DNA of 64,000 nt from Escherichia coli. GTDB lineage: Bacteria; Pseudomonadota; Gammaproteobacteria; Enterobacterales; Enterobacteriaceae. Below are positions 11,927-38,810 of the stretch, piece after piece. Where the stretch lies: the NCBI RefSeq assembly GCF_044324875.1, contig NZ_CP172185.1. One strand, written 5' to 3'. The translations under genes and the position numbers were made by a program. A model generated the notes under the pieces. The model was not told where the DNA came from, made no database searches, and saw nothing but the letters and a program-made list of their open reading frames with translations. Positions within the stretch are counted from its first letter, which is position 1; the number at the start of each line of letters is the position of its first letter.

Positions 11927-12544
11927 ATTTCCTCCACATCCACTGTCTAAAAATTATGATGGTTTATTCAGGATATTCATTCCTTAAATGTTTCCAGCAA
12001 ATTAATAGATTAAGCGAATAAATTATCCTTAGCATTCACTTTCATATCAGCATACTCCTGCTGCACAACAACTCCACTGCATGTGTCAGAAGGTTAGCAT
12101 CAAATGATAACCTGGTGAAATAGCCTGGAGACATTTAAAATATCTACATTAAGTTGTTAGAAATACTTAATGAAAAACAGAATTCTCATTCATTTAATTT
12201 ATAATTAACTGATATCCCTTCCAGTAGAATGCAAAATCACACAATCAATATTTATTCAATAAAATCTGATAGTTTTAACTTGTAAAAATTAAAAAACGCG
12301 CCCAGTTATCTTTTATCCTGATTCGTAAAGGCTAAACAATAAATTTATTATAGTGATAATATTCATGTGATAATTTGTTTGCGGCGAGAGATAATTCGCT
12401 TTTTATCACCGAGCTTCTCCCGATAACCAGGATTAATCAGCGCAATTTTGATCTTAACCTACCGCAAAACAACCGTGCTTCATGATACAAATGGATTCTC
12501 ATTATCTGAACAATACGCAGCACGTCTATGACAAAGGGCGAGTT

Positions 12545-13315
12545 ATGCAAACTGAGCAACAGCGAGCCGTAACACGGCTTTGTATCCAGTGTGGATTATT
12601 TCTTTTGCAACATGGTGCGGAAAGCGCGTTGGTTGATGAGCTTTCCTCACGACTGGGTCGGGCGTTGGGGATGGACAGCGTCGAAAGTTCTATCTCTTCG
12701 AACGCCATAGTGCTGACAACCATTAAAGATGGGCAATGCCTGACATCGACACGTAAAAATCAAGATCGCGGCATTAATATGCATGTGGTGACTGAAGTCC
12801 AGCACATTGTGATTCTGGCGGAGCACCATCTGCTGGATTACAAAGGCGTAGAGAAACGATTTAGCCAAATTCAGCCATTACGTTACCCAAGATGGCTGGT
12901 AGCCTTAATGGTTGGCCTTTCTTGTGCCTGTTTCTGTAAACTCAATAAAGGTGGCTGGGATGGTGCCGTCATCACCTTCTTTGCCAGTACGGTCGCGATG
13001 TATATCCGCCAGCTGCTGGCACAACGTCATCTTCATCCACAAATCAACTTTTGCCTCACCGCTTTCGCCGCCACCACCATTTCCGGTTTGCTTTTGCAAC
13101 TCCCCACTTTCAGCAATACCCCCACCATTGCGATGGCCGCCAGCGTTCTGCTGCTGGTGCCGGGCTTTCCGTTGATTAATGCCGTCGCCGATATGTTTAA
13201 AGGCCACATCAATACCGGACTGGCACGCTGGGCGATCGCCAGTCTGCTGACACTGGCTACCTGCGTCGGCGTAGTGATGGCACTGACGATTTGGGGGCTA
13301 CGCGGATGGGTGTGA
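12545..13315 (+). CDS. yjjP: Inner-membrane protein YjjP (ThrE/DUF1212 family)
   Basis: Start placed at [12 protein letters not shown] (256 aa) inside the 277-aa track ORF; multi-TM protein. Confidence 0.75.
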
Positions 13316-13779
13316 TCGAATTTCTGTTAGCGTTGGCGCAGGATATGATCCTCGCCGCCATTCCTGCGGTCGGCTTTGCGATGGTGTTCAACGTTCCCGT
13401 TCGGGCGTTACGCTGGTGTGCGCTGCTTGGCTCGATAGGTCATGGTTCCCGAATGATCTTAATGACCAGCGGGCTGAATATTGAGTGGTCAACTTTTATG
13501 GCTTCTATGCTGGTCGGCACCATTGGTATTCAATGGTCGCGCTGGTATCTGGCGCATCCGAAAGTGTTTACCGTGGCGGCCGTTATCCCTATGTTCCCGG
13601 GCATATCGGCTTATACCGCAATGATTTCGGCGGTAAAAATCAGCCAGTTAGGTTACAGCGAACCGTTGATGATTACCCTGTTAACCAACTTTCTTACAGC
13701 TTCATCGATTGTTGGTGCGTTATCCATCGGTCTTTCCATTCCTGGATTATGGTTGTACCGCAAGCGCCCTCGCGTATAA
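13306..13779 (+). CDS. yjjB: Inner-membrane protein YjjB (DUF3815)
   Basis: 157-aa hydrophobic ORF from [12 protein letters not shown]; overlaps the yjjP 3' end. Confidence 0.75.
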
Positions 13780-13885
13780 AATTGCCTCGCTTAAGCACAC
13801 GGATGAGAGACAGCCTCCTCTCCTCCGTGTGTTACTATAAAAGTTATCTCCCTTCTCGTTCATCGTTCCATATTTGAGAAACAGT

Positions 13886-14425
13886 ATGTCTTCCAGAGTT
13901 TTGACCCCGGACGTCGTTGGTATTGACGCCCTGGTACACGATCACCAAACCGTTCTGGCAAAAGCTGAAGGCGGTGTGGTTGCCGTATTTGCTAACAATG
14001 CCCCGGCGTTTTATGCCGTCACGCCTGCACGCCTGGCTGAACTGCTGGCGCTGGAAGAAAAGCTGGCGCGTCCGGGAAGCGATGTCGCTCTGGACGATCA
14101 ACTCTATCAGGAACCGCAAGCCGCTCCCGTTGCTGTACCCATGGGGAAATTCGCCATGTATCCGGACTGGCAACCCGATGCCGACTTTATCCGCCTGGCG
14201 GCGCTATGGGGCGTGGCACTAAGAGAGCCGGTGACCACCGAAGAACTGGCCTCATTCATTGCCTACTGGCAGGCGGAAGGTAAAGTCTTTCACCATGTGC
14301 AGTGGCAACAAAAACTGGCGCGCAGCCTGCAAATCGGTCGTGCCAGCAACGGCGGACTGCCGAAACGAGATGTGAATACGGTCAGTGAACCTGACAGCCA
14401 AATTCCACCAGGATTCAGAGGGTAA
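13886..14425 (+). CDS. dnaT: Primosomal protein DnaT
   Basis: 179-aa ORF from [14 protein letters not shown]; immediately upstream of dnaC. Confidence 0.9.
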
Positions 14426-14427
14426 CG

Positions 14428-15165
14428 ATGAAAAACGTTGGCGACCTGATGCAACGCCTGCAAAAAATGATGCCTGCCCATATCAAACCTGCTTTCAAAA
14501 CGGGTGAAGAACTACTGGCCTGGCAGAAAGAACAAGGGGCGATCCGCTCCGCCGCTCTCGAACGTGAAAATCGGGCGATGAAAATGCAGCGCACCTTTAA
14601 CCGCTCCGGTATTCGTCCACTGCATCAGAACTGCTCCTTTGAGAACTATCGCGTTGAGTGTGAAGGGCAGATGAATGCGTTAAGCAAAGCGCGCCAGTAT
14701 GTCGAAGAGTTTGACGGCAACATCGCCAGCTTCATCTTTTCTGGTAAGCCAGGAACCGGCAAAAACCATCTGGCGGCGGCAATCTGCAACGAGCTGCTGC
14801 TACGCGGTAAATCCGTATTGATCATCACCGTGGCCGATATTATGTCGGCGATGAAAGATACCTTCAGGAATAGCGGTACCAGCGAAGAACAACTACTTAA
14901 CGATCTGAGCAACGTTGATCTGCTGGTGATCGATGAGATCGGCGTGCAGACCGAATCGAAATACGAAAAAGTGATCATCAACCAGATCGTCGATCGCCGC
15001 TCTTCTTCCAAACGCCCAACCGGGATGCTGACCAACAGTAATATGGAAGAGATGACCAAGTTGCTGGGCGAACGCGTGATGGACCGTATGCGCCTGGGTA
15101 ACAGTTTGTGGGTGATCTTCAACTGGGATAGCTACCGTAGCCGGGTAACGGGTAAAGAGTATTAA
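14428..15165 (+). CDS. dnaC: Helicase loader DnaC (AAA+ ATPase)
   Basis: 245-aa ORF; Walker A GKPGTGKNHLAAA and Walker B LLVIDEIG. Confidence 0.95.
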   Translation: MKNVGDLMQRLQKMMPAHIKPAFKTGEELLAWQKEQGAIRSAALERENRAMKMQRTFNRSGIRPLHQNCSFENYRVECEGQMNALSKARQYVEEFDGNIASFIFSGKPGTGKNHLAAAICNELLLRGKSVLIITVADIMSAMKDTFRNSGTSEEQLLNDLSNVDLLVIDEIGVQTESKYEKVIINQIVDRRSSSKRPTGMLTNSNMEEMTKLLGERVMDRMRLGNSLWVIFNWDSYRSRVTGKEY

Positions 15166-27512: not shown

Positions 27513-27545
27513 GGCCGCCATGTGGCGGCCTGAATTATTTTTTGT
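27513..27545. terminator. Hairpin (ggccgccatgtggcggcc) followed by a T-run at the yjiA 3' end, overlapping the 3' end of the convergent antitoxin-like gene
   Basis: Inverted repeat plus tgaattattttttgtt directly read. Confidence 0.5.
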
Positions 27546-27837
27546 TCTGATCGCGCAGCATCGCTTCACGTAAAATTGCGTTCAGGCGAGTTTGATAGCC
27601 TTTACCTGGTCGCTTCAACCATTCCATCACATCAGCATCAATACGCACCGAAGCCTGAGTTTTCAATGGCCGATAAAACTTACCGCGTTCTGCGTTAGAC
27701 CATTGCTCATCGCTGGAAGGTGGGATATCGCTGTAATCAATCTCTTCGTCGGATTTATTCGCCAGCGCCTTCAGTTCGGCCTCATGTTGCACATCGAGTG
27801 TAGAGGAGGTCCCTCGTTTATGTTTAACCATGCTCAT
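27535..27837 (-). CDS. BrnA-like antitoxin-family protein (DUF4415/COG3514-like)
   Basis: C-terminal pattern ...SDIP...ERGKFYRP...VRIDADVMEWLKRPGKGYQTRLNAILREAM typical of BrnA/DUF4415; start chosen at the internal ATG preceded by a GAGGAG Shine-Dalgarno (100 aa) rather than the 122-aa track ORF. Confidence 0.6.
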   Translation of the reverse strand: MSMVKHKRGTSSTLDVQHEAELKALANKSDEEIDYSDIPPSSDEQWSNAERGKFYRPLKTQASVRIDADVMEWLKRPGKGYQTRLNAILREAMLRDQNKK

Positions 27838-27975
27838 AGCGACTCCTCTCTTTACGATCTGCTTTTCGTGCACTGATGATTCGAATGTTGGAAATAGCAT
27901 CACGTTTTAGGAAAAGATGGGGAAGTTGATATGAAAGGGCTGGATGGCAACATTGGGACACCATCCAGCACTTAT

Positions 27976-28710
27976 TCAAACCTGATAGCAATCCACCAAA
28001 AATGCCATCATTTCACTGGCATCTTTGCTGTGATAAAAGCGCACCATTTTGCTGTTGAACTCCAGCGCACGAGCTGCGGGTACACTAATTGGATTGTAAC
28101 CGTGGCGCATTAACCAGCCGTTCATCATATGGCGACTGGTACGCTTGTTGCCATCAAAGAAAAACTGAAAATAAGCACCAAATAAAAACATTGCCAGCGC
28201 CCCTTCGAACGGTGGCATCTCTTTTATTTGTGCCACACCTGCGGCGAATATTCGATTCAGTTCAGGTGCACCTGCTTCAGTGGCTGGTGGAAAATGGGTG
28301 CCCAGTTCACCGAGATGAACGCGCGCATTGTAATGCAACTCTTCACCTTCGCCGCGAAAAACGCCCCACTCCAGCGCCTCATTACGCGCAATAATGCCGT
28401 TAAGCAACGTGAACGTTTTCTTATCAAGATCGAAACGCCCGGATTGCACAAGTTCAATCAGTTTTTTTGCGCTATCTGCCAGGTTCAACACCTGCTCAGT
28501 ATCACTGACCTTATGCCCGCCAACGGTGACGCCATCGAGCAGCGTTTTAACTTCAACAAAGGTATAGGGGTTATTTTCCAGTTGCGCGGCATCCCAGACA
28601 AACCCTGCCATATGCGTTTTGAAGGTAAACAAGGCCGCGCGCGTACCGACAATTTGCATCGCCGGGATGGCATTTGCATTCCAGCTCAGGTCCAGTAGTT
28701 TGGTTGTCAT
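27976..28710 (-). CDS. Fic/Doc-fold protein with non-canonical active-site motif QFFFDGNKRTSR (Doc-like xFxDGNKR, His replaced by Gln)
   Basis: Motif comparison with Fic HPFx(D/E)GNGRxxR and Doc HxFx(D/N)(A/G)NKR; AAGGA ribosome-binding site upstream. Confidence 0.55.
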   Translation of the reverse strand: MTTKLLDLSWNANAIPAMQIVGTRAALFTFKTHMAGFVWDAAQLENNPYTFVEVKTLLDGVTVGGHKVSDTEQVLNLADSAKKLIELVQSGRFDLDKKTFTLLNGIIARNEALEWGVFRGEGEELHYNARVHLGELGTHFPPATEAGAPELNRIFAAGVAQIKEMPPFEGALAMFLFGAYFQFFFDGNKRTSRHMMNGWLMRHGYNPISVPAARALEFNSKMVRFYHSKDASEMMAFLVDCYQV

Positions 28711-28753: not shown

Positions 28754-30853
28754 TTAAACCATCGCGTTATCCATCTGCTTTTCAAATGCCTGACGAATTA
28801 ATCCCATCACATAAGGAAGCTCAGAAAGATCGCTGAAACCTACTTCAACATCGCCATTGCCCCAACGGCCTATATCTGTGACATCTTTAGCCATACATTT
28901 TGGGTCAACCAGTTCATGAAATGGCATATTTAGTGATAAACGTAAGCGACTTTTTTGCGGCACCACATCAACAAAATTCGTCTCCGCTTTGAAGGCAACA
29001 TAGAGCTTAAATATTTCTCGCGTAACCCCAGCGTCCAGCGCCATAACGGCATCAGAAAGGCTGTCAAAAAGTACGCGGATATGCGTACCTTCTTCAAGTT
29101 GTGGGAAATCAGCAAGGACATATCCCGTTCCTCGTTCAACGACAGTGCGATAACGAGCCAACACGTCTTCCGAAAGTTTGGGGATCGCCCAGACGTCTAT
29201 TGCCAGCTCGGCCAGACGTTCCGCTCTCTTTTGTATCGCTGCACGATCCCATATTTCACATTGCCCTAACCCCGTGTTCAGGCGTAATGGACTTTCCTTA
29301 AAGCCACCTTTTATATCTCGCTTCTTCGCAAATGGACGGTCGCTGTAGCTTGAGTTATAGCCAGTTAACGTTAAATTACCCAACGTATGGAGCCACTTTT
29401 TATGGATTCGCTTCCATTCCGGACCAAGGTCATCGCGCCACTTCGCCGATAAATTAGGGTTCTGCGGCATGATATGTTCAATCGTATAAGTGTCAACATA
29501 GGCCCGTTCTTTACGATCGTGGTTTTCAAATCTACGTAGCCAATAGCTGCGATTACGGAAGTTGTAGAGGTCGCGAGTTTTCAGTTCACGTTGAAATTCA
29601 TCATCATCCGGGAAACGACGGTAGGAAGGCAGTTCCAGCAAATGTGCCGCAATGCTCTCCAGATAACGCTCTTTATCCAGCACTTTGTAAAACGTGGCGA
29701 AGGTTTTAGTAAATGAGTTAGTGGGAATGGCACAGACTGCGCGCCGGAAGATATACGACTCAATTAAACGCGTGGCACTTAAAAAATCCGCGGCAGAAAG
29801 AATTCCCTGTTTATAGTCATGATAAAGCACCAACAGGAACGGCCAGGCAGCATCGACTTTCAGCTCGCGTAGATCCTGAAATGCCATCTTTAAGGTTTTA
29901 TCCTTTTCGCTATCCAGCGCCATCGCACAAAAATAGTCAGCAAACGTACGAATATCCGCAACCAGCGCCCCCATCCCGCGATCCATCACTCCTGGTTTTC
30001 GCGCATAGCGTTTAAAGGCTTCATAGACATCACCAATTCGCGGAATCTCACCTGTTTTTACCGTCAGATAATTACGCATAAAACTGTCGAAATAGTCAGT
30101 GTATCCCTTCTGACCAAACGCCAGCTCCATGGGCCGCGAGTAATCGTCGTACAGTTGGCTTTGATGTTCTGGCTCCAGCCCCATCAGAACATAGTTGCGA
30201 ACCAGATCCGCCTGACTCAGCGCTTTTCCTGTTGAGTTCATGCTTTCGAAGATTAGTTGCGGATTATCCTGACCGCGATTCAAGGCGACATCCACAATCA
30301 GCAGTTTGGAAAGTCCCTGACATAACGCGGTGAAATTGCCGTGGAGTTTGCCTATTTGCTCATGGAAAAACTCAAAATTCTCTTTCACGCGTAGAGAGCA
30401 ATTTTCTGCCAGCGGTTTTTGTCTAATCAATGCCAGCAGGCTTTCTCTGTCCGTTTGCGTGAGCAGTAACTTAAAACCACGCTCGCCCGATTCATACGGA
30501 TTGAGCAGATAATAGTTTCGTAATTTCATGGCGGAGAAACCATCCATCACCTCGTCATCGCCAAGATGTCTGGACAACGCTTCCAGCAATAACATCGCCG
30601 TTGTCAGGCGTTGCTGACCGTCAATCACCAGTAATGGCGAAATCCCCGAAACCTGATATATGCCCTGTTCGATATACACCACCGAGCCGATGAAATGCGC
30701 CGGGATATCATCACGCTGCCCGGCACGTATTACATCGTCCCAGAGCTGGCGGCACTGTTCCTCTGACCATGAATAAGTACGCTGATAAATGGGAATAACG
30801 AATTGCTGAGAGCGTTTTAGAAAATCGAGTAATCGGGCTTCGGTGGCTTTCAT
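28754..30853 (-). CDS. GmrSD-like type IV (modification-dependent) restriction endonuclease, DUF262 (ParB-like NTPase) + DUF1524 (His-Me finger nuclease)
   Basis: N-terminal DGQQR motif (LLVIDGQQRLTT), C-terminal HIMPQNP His-Me-type motif; 699 aa; AGGAG ribosome-binding site. Confidence 0.7.
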   Translation of the reverse strand: MKATEARLLDFLKRSQQFVIPIYQRTYSWSEEQCRQLWDDVIRAGQRDDIPAHFIGSVVYIEQGIYQVSGISPLLVIDGQQRLTTAMLLLEALSRHLGDDEVMDGFSAMKLRNYYLLNPYESGERGFKLLLTQTDRESLLALIRQKPLAENCSLRVKENFEFFHEQIGKLHGNFTALCQGLSKLLIVDVALNRGQDNPQLIFESMNSTGKALSQADLVRNYVLMGLEPEHQSQLYDDYSRPMELAFGQKGYTDYFDSFMRNYLTVKTGEIPRIGDVYEAFKRYARKPGVMDRGMGALVADIRTFADYFCAMALDSEKDKTLKMAFQDLRELKVDAAWPFLLVLYHDYKQGILSAADFLSATRLIESYIFRRAVCAIPTNSFTKTFATFYKVLDKERYLESIAAHLLELPSYRRFPDDDEFQRELKTRDLYNFRNRSYWLRRFENHDRKERAYVDTYTIEHIMPQNPNLSAKWRDDLGPEWKRIHKKWLHTLGNLTLTGYNSSYSDRPFAKKRDIKGGFKESPLRLNTGLGQCEIWDRAAIQKRAERLAELAIDVWAIPKLSEDVLARYRTVVERGTGYVLADFPQLEEGTHIRVLFDSLSDAVMALDAGVTREIFKLYVAFKAETNFVDVVPQKSRLRLSLNMPFHELVDPKCMAKDVTDIGRWGNGDVEVGFSDLSELPYVMGLIRQAFEKQMDNAMV

Positions 30854-31137
30854 GAATGACTCCTGTCAAATTGCGCTGGCAAACGGTGTCATTATGCTGC
30901 GAATAAAAAATAAAAGTTAGCGTCTTTGTTTCTGCAAAAATACCATTCCAGGATAAATCAAAATATATTAAGAAACACCTCAAAACGCATTCATTAGAAC
31001 AATTAATATTTTCAATTCATATTTATAACGCATTGAAAATGATCGTGTTTTTGATCATCACAGCAATAGTTTGATATAACAAAGCATTCACTTCACATTG
31101 AATATCTCCCTCTTTTTCAGGGCAAGGAATGCTTTTT

Positions 31138-33483
31138 ATGTCATCAACTAATTTCAGTCAGATTGCAGCCTTCCTGTGGTCTGTCGCCGACCTGTTACGC
31201 GGCGATTTTAAACAATCACAATATGGGCGAATTATTCTCCCTTTCACTCTTCTTCGTCGTCTGGAATGCGTACTCGAAACAACGAAAGACGCGGTCATTG
31301 CCGAGGCGCAAAAAGTAAAAGCCATGAAACTGCCGGAGGAAGCCCAGGAGAAAATGATCCTGCGGGCGACTAATGGCCTCACGTTCTTTAATGCCTCAGC
31401 GATGGATCTCAGCAAAATGGGGCAAAATGGCATACAGGACAACCTGGAAAACTACATCCAGTCGTTCTCTTCGGATGCCCGCGAAATTTTCGAACACTTC
31501 AAGTTCAGCGAGTTTGTCGGACAGCTGGCGGATGCGAACTTGCTGTTCAAAGTGGTGCAAATATTCGCTAAAGCAGATTTATACCCGGAGCACGTCACCA
31601 ACCACGATATGGGGCTGGTGTTTGAGGAGCTGATCCGCCGTTTTGCCGAGAGTTCAAACGAAACCGCCGGGGAGCACTTTACCCCGCGTGATATCGTCAA
31701 TCTGACCACCTCGCTGGTGTTTTTCGATGATGATGATGCGCTCAATAAAGACGGCATCATCCGCACCATTTACGATCCAACGGCAGGAACCGGCGGCTTT
31801 CTCTCCTCCGGCATGGAGTACGTCCATAAACAAAACCCCAATGCCGTGATGCGCGCGTTTGGTCAGGAGTTAAACCCGGAATCCTACGCCATCTGCAAAG
31901 CCGACATGCTGATTAAGGGCCAGGACGTCAGCCTTATCAAACTCGGCAATACCCTTTCCAACGATCAACTCCCCGCAGAAAAATTTGATTACATGCTTTC
32001 TAATCCACCTTTCGGCGTGGACTGGAAAAAGATAGAAACCGACATCAACAACGAGCACAAACTCAAAGGTGCTGATGGTCGCTTTGGCCCCGGCCTGCCC
32101 CGCGTCTCTGACGGTTCGTTGCTGTTTCTGCTGCACCTGATCAGCAAAATGCGCGATGCCAAAAGCGGTGGCGGGCGGATCGGCATCATTCTTAATGGTT
32201 CCCCATTATTTACCGGCGGCGCGGGCAGCGGTGAAAGCGAGATCCGCCGCTACATTCTGGAAGCGGATTTGCTGGAAGGCATTATCGCCCTGCCCACCGA
32301 CATGTTTTACAACACCGGTATCGCTACCTATGTTTGGGTGCTGTCCAACAAAAAAGCGCCAGAACGCAAAGGCAAAGTCCAGCTTATCGACGGCAGCAAC
32401 CTGTGCGGCAAGATGCGTAAATCGCTGGGGTCAAAACGCAATATTCTCGGAGACGAGGATATTGGTTTAATCACCCGCACGTTTGGCGATTTCGAACCCG
32501 TTGCCACCACTACGCTTGCGGCGTTAGGCCTGGAGAAAGCACCCGAACAAAAATCCAGCCGGGGACGCCAGCCCGCAACAACCAAAACCGAGGCGGCAAA
32601 AACTTTTGCCAGCAAAGTCTTTCACAGCACCGAGTTTGGCTATCGTCGCATCACCGTTGAGCGCCCGTTACGCCTGTCGGCTCAGATAAGTGATGACGCC
32701 ATTGCCACATTACGTTTTGCGCCGAAGCCGTTTAACGCTCCGATGGCGCAACTGTATGACGCCTTTGCTTTCCAGTGGCAGGACGGTCATTACGGCGACT
32801 TAACAGCGGTAGAAAGTGAAGCCCGCGCCATTCTTAAAGCCGATTTTAGCGAGCTGAAAGAGAAGCAAATTAAAGATCTGCTCGACAGCAAATTATGGCT
32901 GGCCCAGCGCGGGTTAATGGAAAAAGCGCGGCGTATTCAGGCGGCGATGGGTATGCAGGCGGGCGGCAAAGACACCGTTAGCAATGACTTTAATCAGTTC
33001 CAGTTGACGCTGAAAGAGGCGTTCAAAACCGCAGGCGTGAAGCTGGATGCGAAAGAGAACAAGCAGTTTATCGATGCTATCACCCGCAAAAACCCGGACG
33101 CCGAGCCGGTAGTCAGCAAGGTACTGAAAGAAGCGGCCCAACCGTTGTACGGCGCGTTTGAGTACCACGGAAAGGTTGTGGAGTTTGAGCCGGATGGCGA
33201 CCTGCGTGATAACGAGAATGTGCCGTTAAATCCGGCGGTATCTACCAGCGAGTTGATCGAGGGTTACTTCAAAGCAGAAGTATTGCCGCACGTCGCGGAT
33301 GCGTGGATTAACGCCGATAAGCGCGATGCGAAAGATGGGGATATCGGGATTGTGGGGTATGAAATTCCGTTTAATCGCCATTTTTATGTTTATCAACCGC
33401 CAAGGCCGCTGGAGGAGATTGATGCGGATCTGGATGCAGTAAGCGCTGAAATTATGAAACTGTTGCAGGAGGTACATTCCTGA
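31138..33483 (+). CDS. hsdM: Type I restriction-modification system methyltransferase subunit HsdM (unusually long, ~781 aa)
   Basis: N6-adenine MTase motifs ([10 protein letters not shown] motif I, NPPFG motif IV); canonical HsdM N- and C-termini; start placed at the ATG 9 nt downstream of AAGGAA. Confidence 0.9.
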
Positions 33484-34772
33484 TGGCAGGGTTAAATAAA
33501 TATCAGGCGTATCCGGAGTATAGGGATTCTGGGGTGGAGTGGATCGATGCAATCCCTTTTCATTGGGAAGTGCTACCAACATTTTCTCTATGTGAGGCAT
33601 CGACGAAGAAAAATATCGATGGAGCAGAAAACAATGTGCTCTCATTGAGTTATGGAAAAATTATTCCCAGAGATATAGAAACAAACTTCGGGCTTTTACC
33701 AGAGTCATTTAATACTTATCAAATCGTTGAAAATGGCGATATTATTTTAAGATTAACTGATCTACAAAATGATAAAAACAGTTTACGCGTAGGATTAGTC
33801 AAACAAAAAGGGATTATTACATCTGCATATTTAAAACTCAATTCACAAGGAAGTATGCTATCCGAATATTTATATCGCCTACTTCATTCATATGATACGA
33901 CTAAAGTTTTTTATGGCATGGGAGGAGGGCTGAGACAATCAATGAAATTTGAGGATTTCAGAAGATTGCCCTTACTGCTTCCATCGAAAAACGAACAGGG
34001 AAAAATAATTGATTTCCTCGACCACGAAACAGCAAAAATCGATAACCTGATCGAAAAACAACAACAACTTATTGAACTACTGAAAGAAAAACGTCAGGCA
34101 GTGATTAGCCATGCGGTGACCAAAGGGCTAAATCCTGATGTGCCGATGAAAGATTCTGGGGTTGAGTGGTTGGGTGAAGTTCCGAAACACTGGCACATAT
34201 GCAAGTTAAAATGGTTTGCTAATTTGAAAAGTGGTGATTTTATAACCAGCAATTCAATAGAACCAGAAGGAAACTATCCTGTTTATGGTGGAAATGGATT
34301 AAGAGGATATTATTCTCATTTTACACACAATGGTGAATATGTTCTTATTGGTAGACAAGGTGCTCTTTGCGGAAATATAAATTACGCAATTGGAAAATTT
34401 TGGGCTTCAGAACATGCTGTTGTTGTCACCCCAAACGAAAGAGCTGTTACAATATGGTTAGGAGAATTATTAAGAATAATGAACTTAAACCAATATTCAG
34501 TTTCTGCTGCACAACCGGGGCTTGCGGTTGAAAGAATTACTGATTTATATATTCCAATCCCACCATATCAAGAGCAAATAAATATCGGAACTTATATATC
34601 TAAATATATTTCTCTAGATAAAAAATTGATTGAGCATAGTACAGATAATATTGAACTCCTAAAAGAACGCCGCACCGCCCTTATCTCCGCCGCCGTCACC
34701 GGCAAAATCGACCTACGCAACTGGACCGCGCCCATCCCCGAAGCGGAAACACCCACGGAGGTCAGCGCATGA
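33483..34772 (+). CDS. hsdS: Type I R-M specificity subunit HsdS (two target-recognition domains)
   Basis: Duplicated conserved segments (DSGVEWIDAIPFHWEV / DSGVEWLGEVPKHWHI) flank two variable AT-rich TRDs; start overlaps the hsdM stop (TGATG). Confidence 0.9.
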   Translation: MAGLNKYQAYPEYRDSGVEWIDAIPFHWEVLPTFSLCEASTKKNIDGAENNVLSLSYGKIIPRDIETNFGLLPESFNTYQIVENGDIILRLTDLQNDKNSLRVGLVKQKGIITSAYLKLNSQGSMLSEYLYRLLHSYDTTKVFYGMGGGLRQSMKFEDFRRLPLLLPSKNEQGKIIDFLDHETAKIDNLIEKQQQLIELLKEKRQAVISHAVTKGLNPDVPMKDSGVEWLGEVPKHWHICKLKWFANLKSGDFITSNSIEPEGNYPVYGGNGLRGYYSHFTHNGEYVLIGRQGALCGNINYAIGKFWASEHAVVVTPNERAVTIWLGELLRIMNLNQYSVSAAQPGLAVERITDLYIPIPPYQEQINIGTYISKYISLDKKLIEHSTDNIELLKERRTALISAAVTGKIDLRNWTAPIPEAETPTEVSA

Positions 34773-37700
34773 GCAACGACATAACAAAAGAGATCAACCT
34801 GCAAAACGACATCATCGCGCAGATGGCAGAAAAAGGCTGGATTGTCGGCAAAGGTGACGGCTACGACCGGGAACGAGCACTATACGCACAGGATACCTTA
34901 AACTTCGTACAAACCACCCAACCGCAAGAGTGGGAAAAATTCGCCCGCGTTTACCCCAACGACACCGAGCGCCATTTCCTCGACGCACTGGTCGCGCAGC
35001 TTAAAAAAGCCGACAGCAACGCCACCGATATTCAGTCGCGCACCAGGGGTACGCTCGGCGTACTTCGCCACGGCCTGAAAATCCGCAATGCCCGTTTTTC
35101 GCTGTGCCAGTTTAAACCGGAACATAATCTCAACCCGGAAACGCTGGCGCGCTATCAGCAGAATATCTGCCGCATTGTGCCGGAACTGATCTACAGCCCT
35201 TATGCCTCAAATAGCGTCTTTGCAGAAACGGGCGTGAAAGCCAAAAAATGGCGCATCGACCTGGTGCTGTTTATCAACGGCCTGCCAATTGCCACGCTGG
35301 AGCTGAAATCCGAATTCAAACAGGCGGTGCAGAACGCCATTGCGCAGTATAAAAAAACCCGCCTGCCGAAAGATCCCGCTACCAATAAGCCCGAACCGCT
35401 GCTGACCTTCAAGCGCGGGGCGCTGGTGCATTTTGCCGTCAGCCAGTATGACGTTTATATGACCACCAAACTCGTGGGTGACAGCACCTTCTTCCTGCCG
35501 TTTAACAAAGGCACCAAAGATGGTGGTGCAGGCAATGAGATCCCCGAAGATACCCACCGCTACGCCACCGATTATCTGTGGAATGAAGTACTGCTGCCGG
35601 ACAACTTATTAAAAATCCTCGCCAGTTTTGTCCATTTGCAGATTGAAGAAAAAGAGGAGTGGAACGGGCTGAAAGCGAAGAAAGAGAGCCTGATTTTCCC
35701 GCGCTATCACCAGTGGGATGTAGTCAACAAACTGCTGGAGGCCGCGACGGTCGAAGGCACCGGCCATAAATACCTGATCCAGCACAGCGCAGGTTCCGGA
35801 AAGTCGAACTCCATTGCCTGGACCGCCCACCAGCTTTCTCGTCTGTACGACGCAAACGGGGAAAAACAGTTTCATTCTGTTATCGTGGTGACGGACCGCA
35901 CAGTGCTGGACGACCAGCTTCAGGACGCCATCTGGCAGTTCGAGCACGCCGACGGCGTGGTCGGGCGCATCAATAATAGAGAGGGCGATGGCTCTAAATC
36001 GGAAAAGCTCGCCAACGCGCTGGAAAACTCGCAACCGATTATTATTGTCACCATCCAGACGTTCCCGTTCGTATTGAAAGCTATCGAAAACAGTGTCAGC
36101 CTGAAGCAGCGTAAATATGCGGTGATTGCCGACGAAGCACACTCCTCGCAGAGCGGTTCTACCGCCCGTCAGCTTAAAGAAGTGCTGATGAGCGAAGAGA
36201 TGGATGATGACGTGGTACTGTCGTCAGAAGATATTCTGGATGCGACCATCGCTGCACGGAAAGGCAGCAGTAACCTGAACTACTACGCCTTTACCGCCAC
36301 GCCAAAATCCAAAACCCTGGAACTCTTTGGTCGCTGTCCGCGTCCCGATGAGCCGGCCTCAAAAACCAATAAACCTGAGGCCTTCCACGTCTACTCCATG
36401 CGCCAGGCAATCGAAGAAGGCTTTATCCTCGACGTGCTGAAAAACTACACCAACTACAAAGTGGCGTATCAGTTGCTGCAAAAGCTGGAAGACAAGGACC
36501 GCGAAGTCGACAGCAAAAAGGCAAAGATAAAGCTCAACCAATGGGTGACACTGCACGACCACAACATCTCGCAGAAGGTGAAGGTGATTGTGGAGCACTT
36601 CCGCAAACATGTGATGCACCTGCTTGGCGGCCAGGCTAAAGCGATGGTGGTCACCAGTTCACGCAAAGCCGCTGTGCGCTACAAGCTGGCGTTTGATAAA
36701 TACATTAGCGAGAACAATTACCAGAAAATCAGCGCGATGGTGGCATTTTCCGGGGAAGTTGAATTCCAGGAAGGCGACCATAACAGCCTGGCATTGTTAA
36801 AGCAGAAATTTACTGAAATAAACATGAACCCCGGCCTGAAAGGGCGGGATATGCGCAAAGCCTTCGACAGCGATGATTATCAGGTGATGTTGGTCGCCAA
36901 TAAATTCCAGACCGGTTTTGACCAGCCAAAGCTGTGCGCGATGTACGTGGATAAACCCCTCGGTGGCGTCGAGTGCGTGCAGACACTCTCCCGCCTGAAC
37001 CGCACCTATCCGGGCAAAGCGGAATCGGGCACTTTTGTCCTCGATTTTTATAATGATCCGGACGAGATCCTCGGCGCATTCCAGCCCTATTTCCAGACGG
37101 CGGAACTGACCGATGTCAGCGATCCGCAGCAGGTATTCGATCTGTTTGAAAAACTGCGCGCCACGCAGATTTTTCAGTGGCATGAAGTCGAGCAGTTCTG
37201 CGAGGCGTACTTCATCAAAAATAAATCGAATGCGGCGATCAGTAATATCTGTAAACCGGCGGTCGAACGCTGGAAAAAGCGTTATCTGATGGCAATAGAC
37301 GCCTATTTGACCGCCAAAGAGATGTTCGAGCGCACTAAAAAAACGGGCGATACGGTGTTAATCACCAATGCGGAAAACAGTTTTAAAGCCTGTAAGCAGG
37401 AGAAAGATCGTCTGGAGATTTTCAAGAAAGATCTCGGCAGCTTTGTTCGCTTTTATGAGTTTATGTCGCAAATCGTTGAGTACGATGACAAGGATCTGGA
37501 AAAGCTAAGCCTGTTTGCCCGTCATCTGCGTCCGCTGCTGCATGAGCAACGTCTGGAAGAGGATGAAATTGATCTCAGTAATGTGGAGATGAGTCACTAT
37601 CGTTTATCGAAAATCCATGAGCAAGATTTACGCTTACAGGAAGAAACGTCTGACTATACGCTGGATGCAAGTAATGATATTGGTACGGCAAAAGCGAAAG

Positions 37701-38032
37701 ATAAAAAAGAGGAGTTTTTATCGCAGGTGCTTTCTCGGATGAATGAATTATTCATTAGCGACCATTTGACCGACAAAGATATGATCAGCAATGCTTTTGC
37801 GGTGTATAACAAAATAACTGAAAATGAAAATGTTATGACACAAATTAAAAACAATCCGCCAGAACAAGCGATTCTTGGTGATTTCCTCCAGGCAGTTGAT
37901 AATGCTGTAATGGACAGTAATGACGCTCGGCAAGAATTTATGTTGCAATATTTATCCGATCCAGTTCGGGCAAAGGGCTTTGCTTATCTGATGTTTGATA
38001 TGCTCACGGGGAAAATTGCTTTGCCAACATAA
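34769..38032 (+). CDS. hsdR: Type I R-M restriction subunit HsdR (SF2 helicase/endonuclease)
   Basis: Walker A (SAGSGKSNS) and DEAH box (IADEAHSSQ); 1087 aa; ATGA overlap with the hsdS stop. Confidence 0.9.
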   Translation: MSNDITKEINLQNDIIAQMAEKGWIVGKGDGYDRERALYAQDTLNFVQTTQPQEWEKFARVYPNDTERHFLDALVAQLKKADSNATDIQSRTRGTLGVLRHGLKIRNARFSLCQFKPEHNLNPETLARYQQNICRIVPELIYSPYASNSVFAETGVKAKKWRIDLVLFINGLPIATLELKSEFKQAVQNAIAQYKKTRLPKDPATNKPEPLLTFKRGALVHFAVSQYDVYMTTKLVGDSTFFLPFNKGTKDGGAGNEIPEDTHRYATDYLWNEVLLPDNLLKILASFVHLQIEEKEEWNGLKAKKESLIFPRYHQWDVVNKLLEAATVEGTGHKYLIQHSAGSGKSNSIAWTAHQLSRLYDANGEKQFHSVIVVTDRTVLDDQLQDAIWQFEHADGVVGRINNREGDGSKSEKLANALENSQPIIIVTIQTFPFVLKAIENSVSLKQRKYAVIADEAHSSQSGSTARQLKEVLMSEEMDDDVVLSSEDILDATIAARKGSSNLNYYAFTATPKSKTLELFGRCPRPDEPASKTNKPEAFHVYSMRQAIEEGFILDVLKNYTNYKVAYQLLQKLEDKDREVDSKKAKIKLNQWVTLHDHNISQKVKVIVEHFRKHVMHLLGGQAKAMVVTSSRKAAVRYKLAFDKYISENNYQKISAMVAFSGEVEFQEGDHNSLALLKQKFTEINMNPGLKGRDMRKAFDSDDYQVMLVANKFQTGFDQPKLCAMYVDKPLGGVECVQTLSRLNRTYPGKAESGTFVLDFYNDPDEILGAFQPYFQTAELTDVSDPQQVFDLFEKLRATQIFQWHEVEQFCEAYFIKNKSNAAISNICKPAVERWKKRYLMAIDAYLTAKEMFERTKKTGDTVLITNAENSFKACKQEKDRLEIFKKDLGSFVRFYEFMSQIVEYDDKDLEKLSLFARHLRPLLHEQRLEEDEIDLSNVEMSHYRLSKIHEQDLRLQEETSDYTLDASNDIGTAKAKDKKEEFLSQVLSRMNELFISDHLTDKDMISNAFAVYNKITENENVMTQIKNNPPEQAILGDFLQAVDNAVMDSNDARQEFMLQYLSDPVRAKGFAYLMFDMLTGKIALPT

Positions 38033-38096: not shown

Positions 38097-38810
38097 ATGC
38101 TGAAGATGATTAAAGATTTTAAATTCAAAAAATACATTAAAAAATTACGTGAAGAAGGTTTGTTTTTTTATGTTTCTTTCGGTTTTATATTTACATTGTT
38201 AATGGAAGTTGATAATCAATTACCATACTATCTTCAACAAGACTTCTTCTTTTATACACTTATAGGATTTATGCCAATCAATATATTCTTTGTTTTGATT
38301 TGCACAAATGTATTTTTCAATGCCGCCCACACACTTATTTCACCTTATAAAGGTCAAAGAGTTGGTGAGAAATTTCTCTCTGAACTTGATAAAAGAACGC
38401 AACAAATTGGCTTTATTATTTCATTTATATGTTTTGGCATGACATTGTTTTGTGCTCTGGCGTGGTTGCTGTTTTTTGAGATGAATAATGAAAGTTACTA
38501 CGCAAAATATACATTAGATTTTTTGGCTGTTTTTATCATTATGATTATGTTTTCTTCAGCAGTTAATCCAGTCATGAGAAGAATATTCCAAAAAATGAAG
38601 GGATCGGACTCACATGGAAATTCAAAAATAATTCTTATAATTATAATCATTGTGTTATTGCTATTATTGCCAATTGCGTACATTATCAATAAAAATAAAA
38701 CAATTGAAATCAATATTAAGAAAGAAACTTATCAGCAAATAAAAGAAAAAACAAAGATGAAACCAGAAGATTATATCAAAAAATTGATTGCTGATATTAA
38801 ATTCAACTAA
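38097..38810 (+). CDS. Low-GC multi-pass membrane protein of unknown function (237 aa)
   Basis: Strongly AT-rich ORF with several hydrophobic segments and a Lys-rich C-terminus; AAGGAA ribosome-binding site; 64 bp downstream of hsdR. Confidence 0.55.
   Translation: MLKMIKDFKFKKYIKKLREEGLFFYVSFGFIFTLLMEVDNQLPYYLQQDFFFYTLIGFMPINIFFVLICTNVFFNAAHTLISPYKGQRVGEKFLSELDKRTQQIGFIISFICFGMTLFCALAWLLFFEMNNESYYAKYTLDFLAVFIIMIMFSSAVNPVMRRIFQKMKGSDSHGNSKIILIIIIIVLLLLLPIAYIINKNKTIEINIKKETYQQIKEKTKMKPEDYIKKLIADIKFN

Follow-up and report, generated by a model that had tools for sequence, protein, structure and literature searches.

The gene between positions 28754 and 30853 (minus strand) of the window, by which we mean the whole 64,000-nt stretch of Escherichia coli contig NZ_CP172185.1 that was analysed, encodes a 699-aa protein that is, judged by its sequence, a member of the GmrSD superfamily and of a ~700-aa three-domain subfamily (DUF262, helical linker, DUF1524 and DUF5655). 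The gene is already known, and it is ordinary apart from its uncharacterised third domain. We consider it reasonably probable, taking the explanation as a whole, that the protein is an accessory GmrSD nuclease standing beside a type I restriction-modification (R-M) system and most likely covering modified phage DNA.

The open reading frame (taken from the ORF list) starts with ATG, and inspection of the sequence places an AGGAG ribosome-binding site 7 nt upstream (30860-30864, minus strand). The Pfam searches proposed by the first-pass annotation gave matches well past chance to both expected domains on the minus strand: the ParB-like NTPase domain DUF262 (GmrSD_N, PF03235; residues 9-222, 30188-30829; E 3.6e-34) and the His-Me finger nuclease domain DUF1524 (GmrSD_C, PF07510; residues 414-549, 29207-29614; E 2.5e-27). 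That annotation had described a single-polypeptide DUF262-DUF1524 (GmrSD-like) enzyme, and with both domains and both motifs intact the description holds. The DGQQR motif (residues 78-82; 30608-30622, minus strand) lies at a beta-strand/helix junction in the AF2 model, which is confident (pLDDT 89.4), and D78-R82 do not vary in any of the 60 aligned subfamily members (60/60). The nuclease motif EHIMP (residues 459-463; 29465-29479, minus strand; the longer EHIMPQNP spans 459-466) contributes E459, H460 and P463, and the rest of the His-Me finger is provided by N493 (29375-29377) and N500 (29354-29356), both on the minus strand. Among 59 relatives these residues are kept in 56 (E459), 57 (H460), 59 (P463), 59 (N493) and 58 (N500), and in the model a beta-beta-alpha arrangement is made up of strands 457-460 and 494-497 and the helix after them. 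Residues ~223-413 (29615-30187, minus strand) form a linker that is all-helical by DSSP on the AF2 model (pLDDT ~90); Machnicka (2015) described the superfamily by an alpha-helical linker of ~200-400 residues joining the two domains, and the modelled protein has such a linker. E. coli proteins labelled 'GmrSD restriction endonuclease domain-containing protein' are 98% identical to it. The best PADLOC match is Orf5 (PDLC02693; E 8e-213, 542 of 543 profile positions), and NCBIfam returned zero matches for GmrSD or for the neighbouring Fic and BrnA proteins.

The C-terminus carries a further domain, which the first-pass annotation had overlooked. Residues 593-692 (28778-29077, minus strand; alpha+beta) match DUF5655 (Pfam PF18899): E is 1.8e-10 when the full protein is searched and 6.2e-12 when the isolated domain is, and the match is found in 40 of 46 subfamily members. 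Fold comparison shows that the model of this domain resembles the 'double-wing' folds of YdhG, YjbR and MotA-C; this placement came solely from fold comparison, as the profile of the domain had no significant match among PDB sequences. In AFDB50 the domain occurs mainly in 700-aa DUF262 proteins, plus 150-300-aa entries named 'predicted transport protein', and a search of its profile against a set of 5.8 billion proteins gave same-family fragments and revealed no other architectures. In our literature search DUF5655 was named in just one paper, an unrelated one, PDC-S18 was mentioned nowhere, and no published substrate was found for the DUF5655-bearing cluster, the commonest GmrSD cluster of enterobacteria.

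The relationship to characterised enzymes is distant. The prototype type IV enzymes Eco94GmrSD and EcoCT596 GmrSD (acting on glc-hmC and hmC) share with the window protein a single polypeptide with DUF262 and DGQQR, a helical linker and a DUF1524 (D/E)H...N motif, but they are prophage-borne, lack DUF5655 and are far removed in sequence. The PADLOC mREase_IV model (629 positions), which may represent the prototype GmrSD, matches the window protein with E 3.5e-24 in three stretches, the best covering residues 8-94 only; membership in the prototype clade (Eco94, CT596, UTI89) was rejected, since this profile shows no close full-length similarity. He et al. (2015) similarly reported 24% identity between the prototype and a GmrSD homolog of the immigration control region (ICR). 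The PADLOC profile of HEC-06 gives a full-length match over residues 8-557 (E 2.6e-58). HEC-06 shares DGQQR, EHxxP and the habit of sitting as an embedded accessory gene; it differs in that its profile ends at ~560 residues, and so lacks DUF5655, and in its host system, which is Hma and not type I R-M. In HEC-06, mutations of DGQQR or EH abolish defence (Payne et al. 2024; 10.1101/2024.01.29.577857). The best matches among solved structures are DndI (9JFL; phmmer E 2e-11) and SspE (E 2e-6) by sequence, and 9jfl (E 6.7e-16, TM 0.50/0.56) and 7drr (E 8.5e-14) by Foldseek. DndI (9JFL) and SspE (6JIV, 7DRS) share the DGQQR at a strand-helix junction and an insert between the strands of the nuclease motif, but they are only 15-19% identical to the window protein, lack DUF5655 and act together with dnd or ssp phosphorothioation genes. 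BrxU (PDB 7P9K) is absent both from the phmmer matches (E <= 0.01) and from the Foldseek matches (E <= 10).

The gene order in the window is yjiA, brnA, fic, gmrSD and, divergently, hsdMSR, and the locus is a known variant cassette of the ICR. The type I R-M operon (31138-38032, plus strand) consists of hsdM (31138-33483), hsdS (33483-34772) and hsdR (34769-38032), recognised by PADLOC as MTase_I (E 4.7e-281), Specificity_I (E 1.6e-113) and REase_I (E 1.7e-39); the TIGR matches to hsdM and hsdR are under their curated cut-offs. Between gmrSD and hsdM lies an AT-rich divergent intergenic region (30854-31137, GC 0.44), in which a scan for the sigma-70 consensus gave no match; the sole match of that scan (29496-29469) is inside gmrSD and below the shuffled expectation, and was discarded. 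On the other side, an orphan brnA antitoxin gene (27535-27837, minus strand; as annotated by RefSeq in the syntenic strain AF39, with a PHROG antitoxin match) has just upstream of it a fragment of brnT, whereas in Citrobacter the brnT-brnA pair is intact. A 237-aa ORF past hsdR (38097-38810) was considered as the YgjP-like protein seen in Kiritimatiella and ruled out, having only weak membrane-protein-like Pfam matches.

In K-12 yjiA is followed by mrr (convergent with yjiA and divergent from hsdR) and then by hsdRMS. The window gmrSD thus occupies the yjiA-proximal slot, and the earlier statement that it sits in the position of mrr is correct as synteny: like the window gene, the type IV enzyme Mrr (EcoKMrr) lies between yjiA and a type I operon, divergent from hsd, although its fold is unrelated to that of GmrSD, being PD-(D/E)XK, as stated in the title of Bujnicki and Rychlewski (2001). 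The further suggestion that one activity functionally replaced the other does not follow, because the whole island differs and a relative with 73% nucleotide identity coexists with mrr. The type I system of the window belongs to another family, with the order M-S-R, and no mcrBC ORF was found between hsdR and the yjiS-side flank of the window. The content of the slot varies as well: it is brnA, fic and gmrSD in the window and fic only in strain E04. In strain MS20655 the 73% relative shares the island with mrr, and mutual exclusion of GmrSD and Mrr was rejected on this ground; APEC O1 likewise has an ICR GmrSD homolog coexisting with Mrr (He et al. 2015).

We compared the contexts of nine loci encoding three-domain relatives, the window included. 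In six of the nine (window, Citrobacter, Kiritimatiella, Oceanimonas, Litorilinea and Binatia) the gene is next to or inside a type I R-M system; in the others it follows BrxL, lies beside Mks-like genes, or is alone (one locus each). The gene thus recurs in or next to hsd operons of unrelated genomes, which is the habit of RloF, TgvAB and PrrC. In Kiritimatiella and Binatia its start and stop codons overlap type I genes; in the window it is adjacent and divergent to hsdMSR, and not embedded. Across phyla the GmrSD proteins are 68-72% identical, as against 21-40% for the adjoining HsdM and HsdR, and the gene therefore behaves as a portable add-on. Within E. coli, window and AF39 have HsdS proteins only 35% identical, versus a difference of 11 out of 699 residues in GmrSD. 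GmrSD-like genes are often embedded in type I R-M systems, for which a complementary role has been proposed (10.1101/2024.01.29.577857), and TgvAB is a tested case of such complementation (10.1101/2024.04.04.588119). TgvAB (Vibrio cholerae VPI-2), RloF (Campylobacter) and BrxU (pEFER) resemble the window gene in being GmrSD-like genes that lie inside type I R-M or BREX operons or are attached to them, and they are assumed to deal with modified phage DNA beyond the reach of the host system; TgvAB differs in requiring two proteins.

By analogy with Eco94GmrSD, BrxU, HEC-06, DndI and SspE, the N-terminal ParB-like domain would bind and hydrolyse NTP through DGQQR and would gate the C-terminal E459/H460/N493/N500 His-Me nuclease, which in turn would nick or cleave invading DNA, whereas the double-wing DUF5655 domain probably serves in DNA or ligand recognition. 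The gene behaves as an accessory nuclease, complete in itself, that is added to defence operons of other kinds, type I R-M in most cases and BREX in some, and its role there would most likely be to act on phage DNA whose base modifications evade the type I enzyme. Ordinary m6A or m5C should not be the target, because the host is presumably Dam+ and Dcm+ and has its own type I m6A methylation; a hypermodified cytosine (hmC or glucosyl-hmC) or another phage-specific modification is most likely. That the window GmrSD depends on modification is something we infer by analogy with these enzymes. Counted against the explanation as a whole are the closeness to DndI and SspE, which do not follow classical type IV logic, the weak mREase_IV similarity, the failure to recover BrxU, and a serine at residue 239.

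An alternative that we regard as unlikely is that the enzyme works as DndI or SspE does, reading a self mark of the host (phosphorothioate or the adjacent type I m6A) and attacking DNA without it; on that view GmrSD would not be a type IV enzyme but would give the neighbouring R-M system a second, modification-protected effector. These two proteins are the best PDB matches in both sequence and fold, and the codon overlaps with type I genes in Kiritimatiella and Binatia point in the same direction. The top PADLOC label, Orf5, is near PbeA and SspE in the accession list, and this place may suggest a phosphorothioate-related group. A patch of the window protein, P21-x-Y23-Q24, aligns with P23/Y25/Q26 of DndI, residues that the DndI paper linked to phosphorothioate sensing; according to the DndI literature, the target of DndI is unmodified DNA, SspE detects the phosphorothioate of its own host, and neither follows classical type IV logic. 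However, the annotation of the syntenic 26-49 kb in AF39 and A20 has no dnd or ssp genes, nor do the nine sampled contexts, and the P-x-Y/F-Q-R patch is kept throughout the subfamily whatever the context. The conservation of GmrSD moreover far exceeds that of its type I neighbours, the protein is indifferent to HsdS specificity, and the gene is also found alone, after BrxL, or beside Mks-like genes.

We likewise doubt that the window copy is decaying or hypomorphic, its frame intact and its function impaired, as in many E. coli relatives. Codon 239 (30137-30139, minus strand) is TCG, encoding Ser where relatives have Trp (W239S): the residue is Trp in 56 of 59 relatives, and Ser is found in the window copy alone among 60 sequences, at this near-invariant site. 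Relatives in strains A37, Q5 and GF130 carry IS4 insertions, the allele of strain A20 is frameshifted beside a degraded hsdS, all three genomes sampled (3/3) have a split paralog at the yjiS end of the island, and the neighbouring brnT is already fragmentary. Against decay, the ORF is full-length with every catalytic and invariant residue kept, the adjoining hsdM, hsdS and hsdR ORFs are full length too, and residue 239 is located in the helical linker of the AF2 model, outside the active site. The window protein differs from E. coli alleles at 11-14 residues (W239S among them) with dN/dS of 0.10-0.12, and gmrSD is under purifying selection. The activity of the window copy is nevertheless not assured, as frameshifts, splits and IS4 insertions are common among its E. 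coli relatives.

It is rather improbable, in our estimate, that the three-domain subfamily is functionally distinct from classical GmrSD, with DUF5655 recognising some phage modification other than those of the hmC series, or else sensing the state of its type I partner; in the latter case the protein would be a PrrC-like guard that fires on inhibition of R-M. The conservation behind this proposal is the ~70% identity from Escherichia to Kiritimatiellota, Chloroflexota and Binatota, next to 21-40% for the type I R-M neighbours.

The fic gene (27976-28710, minus strand; Doc-like motif QFFFDGNKRTSR; Pfam Fic E 4.4e-4, phrog_11900 E 3e-43) begins 43 nt downstream of gmrSD on the same strand, which bears out the earlier remark that gmrSD is directly upstream of a Doc-like gene; a search of the gap for terminator-like sites found none, and the two genes are probably co-transcribed. 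Its product has a conserved Doc-type GNKR motif, but with Gln in place of the catalytic His. That the two genes form one system (e.g. a nuclease with a Doc-like toxin or regulator) is very unlikely: the short gap without a terminator, the near-equal counts (of 5426 E. coli genomes, 117 have fic and 114 the gmrSD arrangement) and the same pair in Enterobacteriaceae FGI 57 favour it, but the E04 slot holds fic alone (so that Fic as an obligate partner was rejected), fic is missing from Citrobacter and five other distant three-domain contexts, the Fic_N-Fic protein encoded a few kb off in Binatia is another one, of 387 aa, and the catalytic His is missing.

Among 5426 complete E. coli genomes, 114 have the arrangement seen in the window, and in these RefSeq already labels the protein GmrSD. 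ICR GmrSD genes were reported in 2015 (He et al.) and in 2025 (PMC12707154), the latter finding GmrSD in 12% of ICR loci, alongside type I families and brnAT. In Silas et al. (2025; PMC12373910) the three-domain subfamily corresponds to cluster CLS_001, and one representative of each of 15 GmrSD systems was tested against T-even phages. The supplement lists under CLS_001 the protein AGB79837.1 (D782_3934; P0018), which is 83% identical to the window GmrSD over all 699 aa (100% of the query); its neighbourhood (yjiA-like GTPase, Fic, GmrSD, HsdM) is like that of the window, and CLS_001 shows no difference in kind from the window gene. The ICR homologs APECO1_2080 and UTI89_C5048 of He et al. 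(2015) very probably belong to CLS_001 as well. Given its 733-aa length and described neighbours, the homolog of He et al. probably corresponds to the relative with 76% identity that lies at the opposite end of the island, where it coexists with Mrr.

The practical value of these results lies in correct annotation: the locus is an ICR with a type I R-M system, a GmrSD nuclease, a Doc-like Fic protein and an orphan brnA, and this set stands in place of the Mrr, EcoKI and McrBC of K-12. The cassette affects the transformability and the sensitivity to T-even-like phages to be expected of strains that carry it. The wider point is a modest one, namely that the commonest enterobacterial GmrSD cluster has a conserved C-terminal domain, DUF5655, which is uncharacterised.

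The gene at 28754–30853 (minus strand; ATG start, with the ribosome-binding site AGGAG 7 nt upstream) encodes a GmrSD-like protein of 699 a.a. with three Pfam-A domains: GmrSD_N/DUF262 (residues 9–222, E 3.6e-34), GmrSD_C/DUF1524 (residues 414–549, E 2.5e-27) and DUF5655 (residues 593–692, E 1.8e-10). The first-pass annotation had recognized a DUF262–DUF1524 gene here and had named a profile search as the test of it; both domains are strongly matched, and both motifs, DGQQR (residues 78–82) and EHIMPQNP (residues 459–466), are present. The DUF5655 domain had been overlooked. No NCBIfam model was found for the protein. In the AF2 model, which has high confidence (pLDDT 89.4, pTM 0.78), DGQQR is at a strand–helix junction, and E459/H460 close a strand, after which come strand 494–497 and a helix, i.e. 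a His-Me finger. The dN/dS of the gene is 0.10–0.12 against two E. coli alleles.

On one side the island is bounded by btsT–yjiX–yjiA (yjiA on the plus strand), followed by brnA (27535–27837, minus strand), a Fic gene (27976–28710, minus strand) and gmrSD; a divergent AT-rich region of 284 bp separates gmrSD from hsdM–hsdS–hsdR (31138–38032, plus strand). The order in K-12 MG1655 is yjiA–mrr–hsdR–hsdM–hsdS–symE–mcrBC, with mrr convergent with yjiA and divergent from hsdR, and gmrSD does lie where K-12 has mrr, in the same slot and orientation. The slot in the window holds three genes (brnA, fic and gmrSD), and the island differs from that of K-12 as an entire cassette. The complete arrangement is found in 114 out of 5426 complete E. 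coli genomes (96–98% nucleotide identity), in which RefSeq names the gene 'GmrSD restriction endonuclease domain-containing protein'. Functional replacement of Mrr had been suggested; the correspondence is one of position, and the subfamily is neither exclusive with Mrr nor bound to the slot. A relative (73% nucleotide, 76% amino acid identity) is present in about 800 further E. coli genomes, at the opposite end of the island in the symE–yjiS interval (about positions 12000–15100 of loci L003, L004 and L019, from strains TUM18780, ST2747 and MS20655); each of the three genomes inspected has it in two fragments, broken in the same pattern. In MS20655 this relative shares the island with mrr and a type IA hsdRMS, and in E04 (L017) the yjiA–hsdR slot is occupied by fic alone. 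What differs from strain to strain is the whole cassette. Right behind hsdR in the window is a 237-a.a. ORF (38097–38810, plus strand), hypothetical in E. coli; it is not the YgjP-like gene found 3' of hsdR in Kiritimatiella, and its Pfam matches are weak and membrane-protein-like.

We compared the window with eight other contexts on long contigs, whose three-domain proteins are 67–76% identical to that of the window. Six of the nine contexts are linked to type I R-M genes: besides the window, these are Kiritimatiella (hsdM–hsdS–gmrSD–hsdR, with overlapping codons), Binatia (hsdM–gmrSD–hsdS–hsdR), Litorilinea (hsdM, gmrSD, then hsdS and hsdR at some remove), Oceanimonas (hsdM–S–BroN–hsdR–gmrSD) and Citrobacter amalonaticus (the same immigration control region, ICR, with gmrSD convergent with hsdR and brnT–brnA intact). 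Elsewhere gmrSD is immediately 3' of brxL (one MAG), adjoins Mks-like genes (Nitrincola) or stands alone (Desulfobulbus). This proportion fits earlier surveys, in which type I genes were the most enriched GmrSD neighbours, RloF being an example (Machnicka 2015), and GmrSD-like genes were often embedded in type I R-M loci (Payne 2024, 10.1101/2024.01.29.577857). Type I loci holding relatives also host other defence or toxin genes: DarT–Macro is lodged between hsdS and hsdR in Litorilinea (L008, 13711–15004), and a Fic_N–Fic protein is encoded close behind hsdR in Binatia (L012, 16338–17501).

Across Escherichia, Kiritimatiellota, Chloroflexota and Binatota (the window compared with L005, L006, L008 and L012) the GmrSD–DUF5655 proteins are 68–72% identical. 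Identity to the window is only 21–40% for the HsdM and HsdR that adjoin them, which implies that the gene crossed between phyla recently or that the nuclease is under unusually strong constraint. Between the window and E. coli AF39 (L001), GmrSD differs at 11 of 699 residues and HsdM and HsdR are 98% identical, yet the HsdS between them (33483–34772 in the window, 16730–18133 in L001) share only 35% identity, a classic case of specificity-subunit swapping in an otherwise identical cassette. Because GmrSD is conserved while its R-M partners diverge, the nuclease moves and evolves independently of the host R-M system, which favours an autonomous add-on over a nuclease that recognizes its partner's specific methylation.

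Among solved structures DndI (9JFL) is the best match both by sequence (E 2e-11) and by fold (E 7e-16, TM 0.50–0.56), with SspE next in both; neither search recovered BrxU. In PADLOC, 'Orf5' scores best (E 8e-213, end to end), followed by HEC-06 (E 2.6e-58); mREase_IV (629 positions), which may be a prototype-based model, gives E 3.5e-24 with its best-scoring stretch at residues 8–94 only. DGQQR and EH are needed for defence by HEC-06 (10.1101/2024.01.29.577857). Mechanisms differ in this superfamily: Eco94GmrSD, BrxU and TgvAB target modified-cytosine DNA (for TgvAB, 10.1101/2024.04.04.588119), and host phosphorothioate activates SspE but restrains DndI, which nicks DNA that is unmodified. 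We therefore infer modification-dependence by analogy, as the domain matches do not by themselves give it. From established E. coli biology, ordinary m6A and m5C would not be targets, because the enzyme must tolerate the host chromosome, which presumably bears Dam and Dcm methylation in addition to that of the neighbouring type I system. The favoured reading, which is somewhat likely, is of an NTP-gated His-Me nuclease that, as a stand-alone accessory of the type I system, would restrict phage DNA able to escape type I restriction by being hypermodified. A DndI-like enzyme, as the closest solved match suggests, is unlikely given the conservation of GmrSD independently of its partner R-M.

Codon 239 (TCG, 30137–30139, minus strand) encodes Ser where 56 out of 59 relatives have Trp, as do the E. 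coli alleles closest to it; W239S may be hypomorphic, or it may stem from a sequencing error. E. coli relatives are often inactivated, by a frameshift (A20), IS4 insertions (three strains) or splitting of the copies at the yjiS end. Both observations point to an impaired copy, a doubtful reading that overlaps with the others. An obligate GmrSD–Fic pair, also overlapping, is quite improbable, since fic is alone in the slot in E04. In the Doc-type motif of the Fic-fold protein, QFFFDGNKRTSR, Gln replaces the catalytic His; the Gln is retained in the 86%-nt-diverged copy of E04, where the gene is flanked by yjiA and a type IA hsdR. No Phd-like antitoxin gene adjoins the Fic gene. The brnA antitoxin gene (within 27535–27903, minus strand) is an orphan: its cognate brnT toxin gene is down to a ∼60-nt fragment in syntenic E. 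coli, and intact brnT–brnA is in the same place in Citrobacter amalonaticus (L014).

Both the kind of gene and its arrangement are already known. He et al. 2015 described a GmrSD homologue in the ICR, with Mrr alongside it in APEC O1. GmrSD was found in 12% of 9040 ICR loci, where the type IA, IB and ID families go together with distinct type IV families and with the brnAT, symE and rpn toxin–antitoxin systems (EcoSal review 2025, PMC12707154). Among the clusters listed for enterobacterial GmrSD proteins by Silas et al. 2025 (PMC12373910), CLS_001 is the first and is larger than CLS_002 (116 members versus 97), and its members include AGB79837 (D782_3934), which matches the window protein at 83% identity from end to end and lies in the same neighbourhood (yjiA-like GTPase–Fic–GmrSD–HsdM). 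The three-domain architecture of ∼700 a.a. occurs widely: 2560 matches at E ≤ 1e-30, many end to end, came from a full scan of 1.84 billion cluster representatives, and AFDB50 has it in Helicobacter, Bacteroides, Eubacterium, Proteus and Methanobrevibacter. Among 60 aligned members P21, Q24, R25, D78-G-Q-Q-R82, N206, G209, R370, P463 and N493 are invariant, and E459, H460 and N500 nearly so. The DUF5655 domain is conserved in this very common three-domain subfamily.
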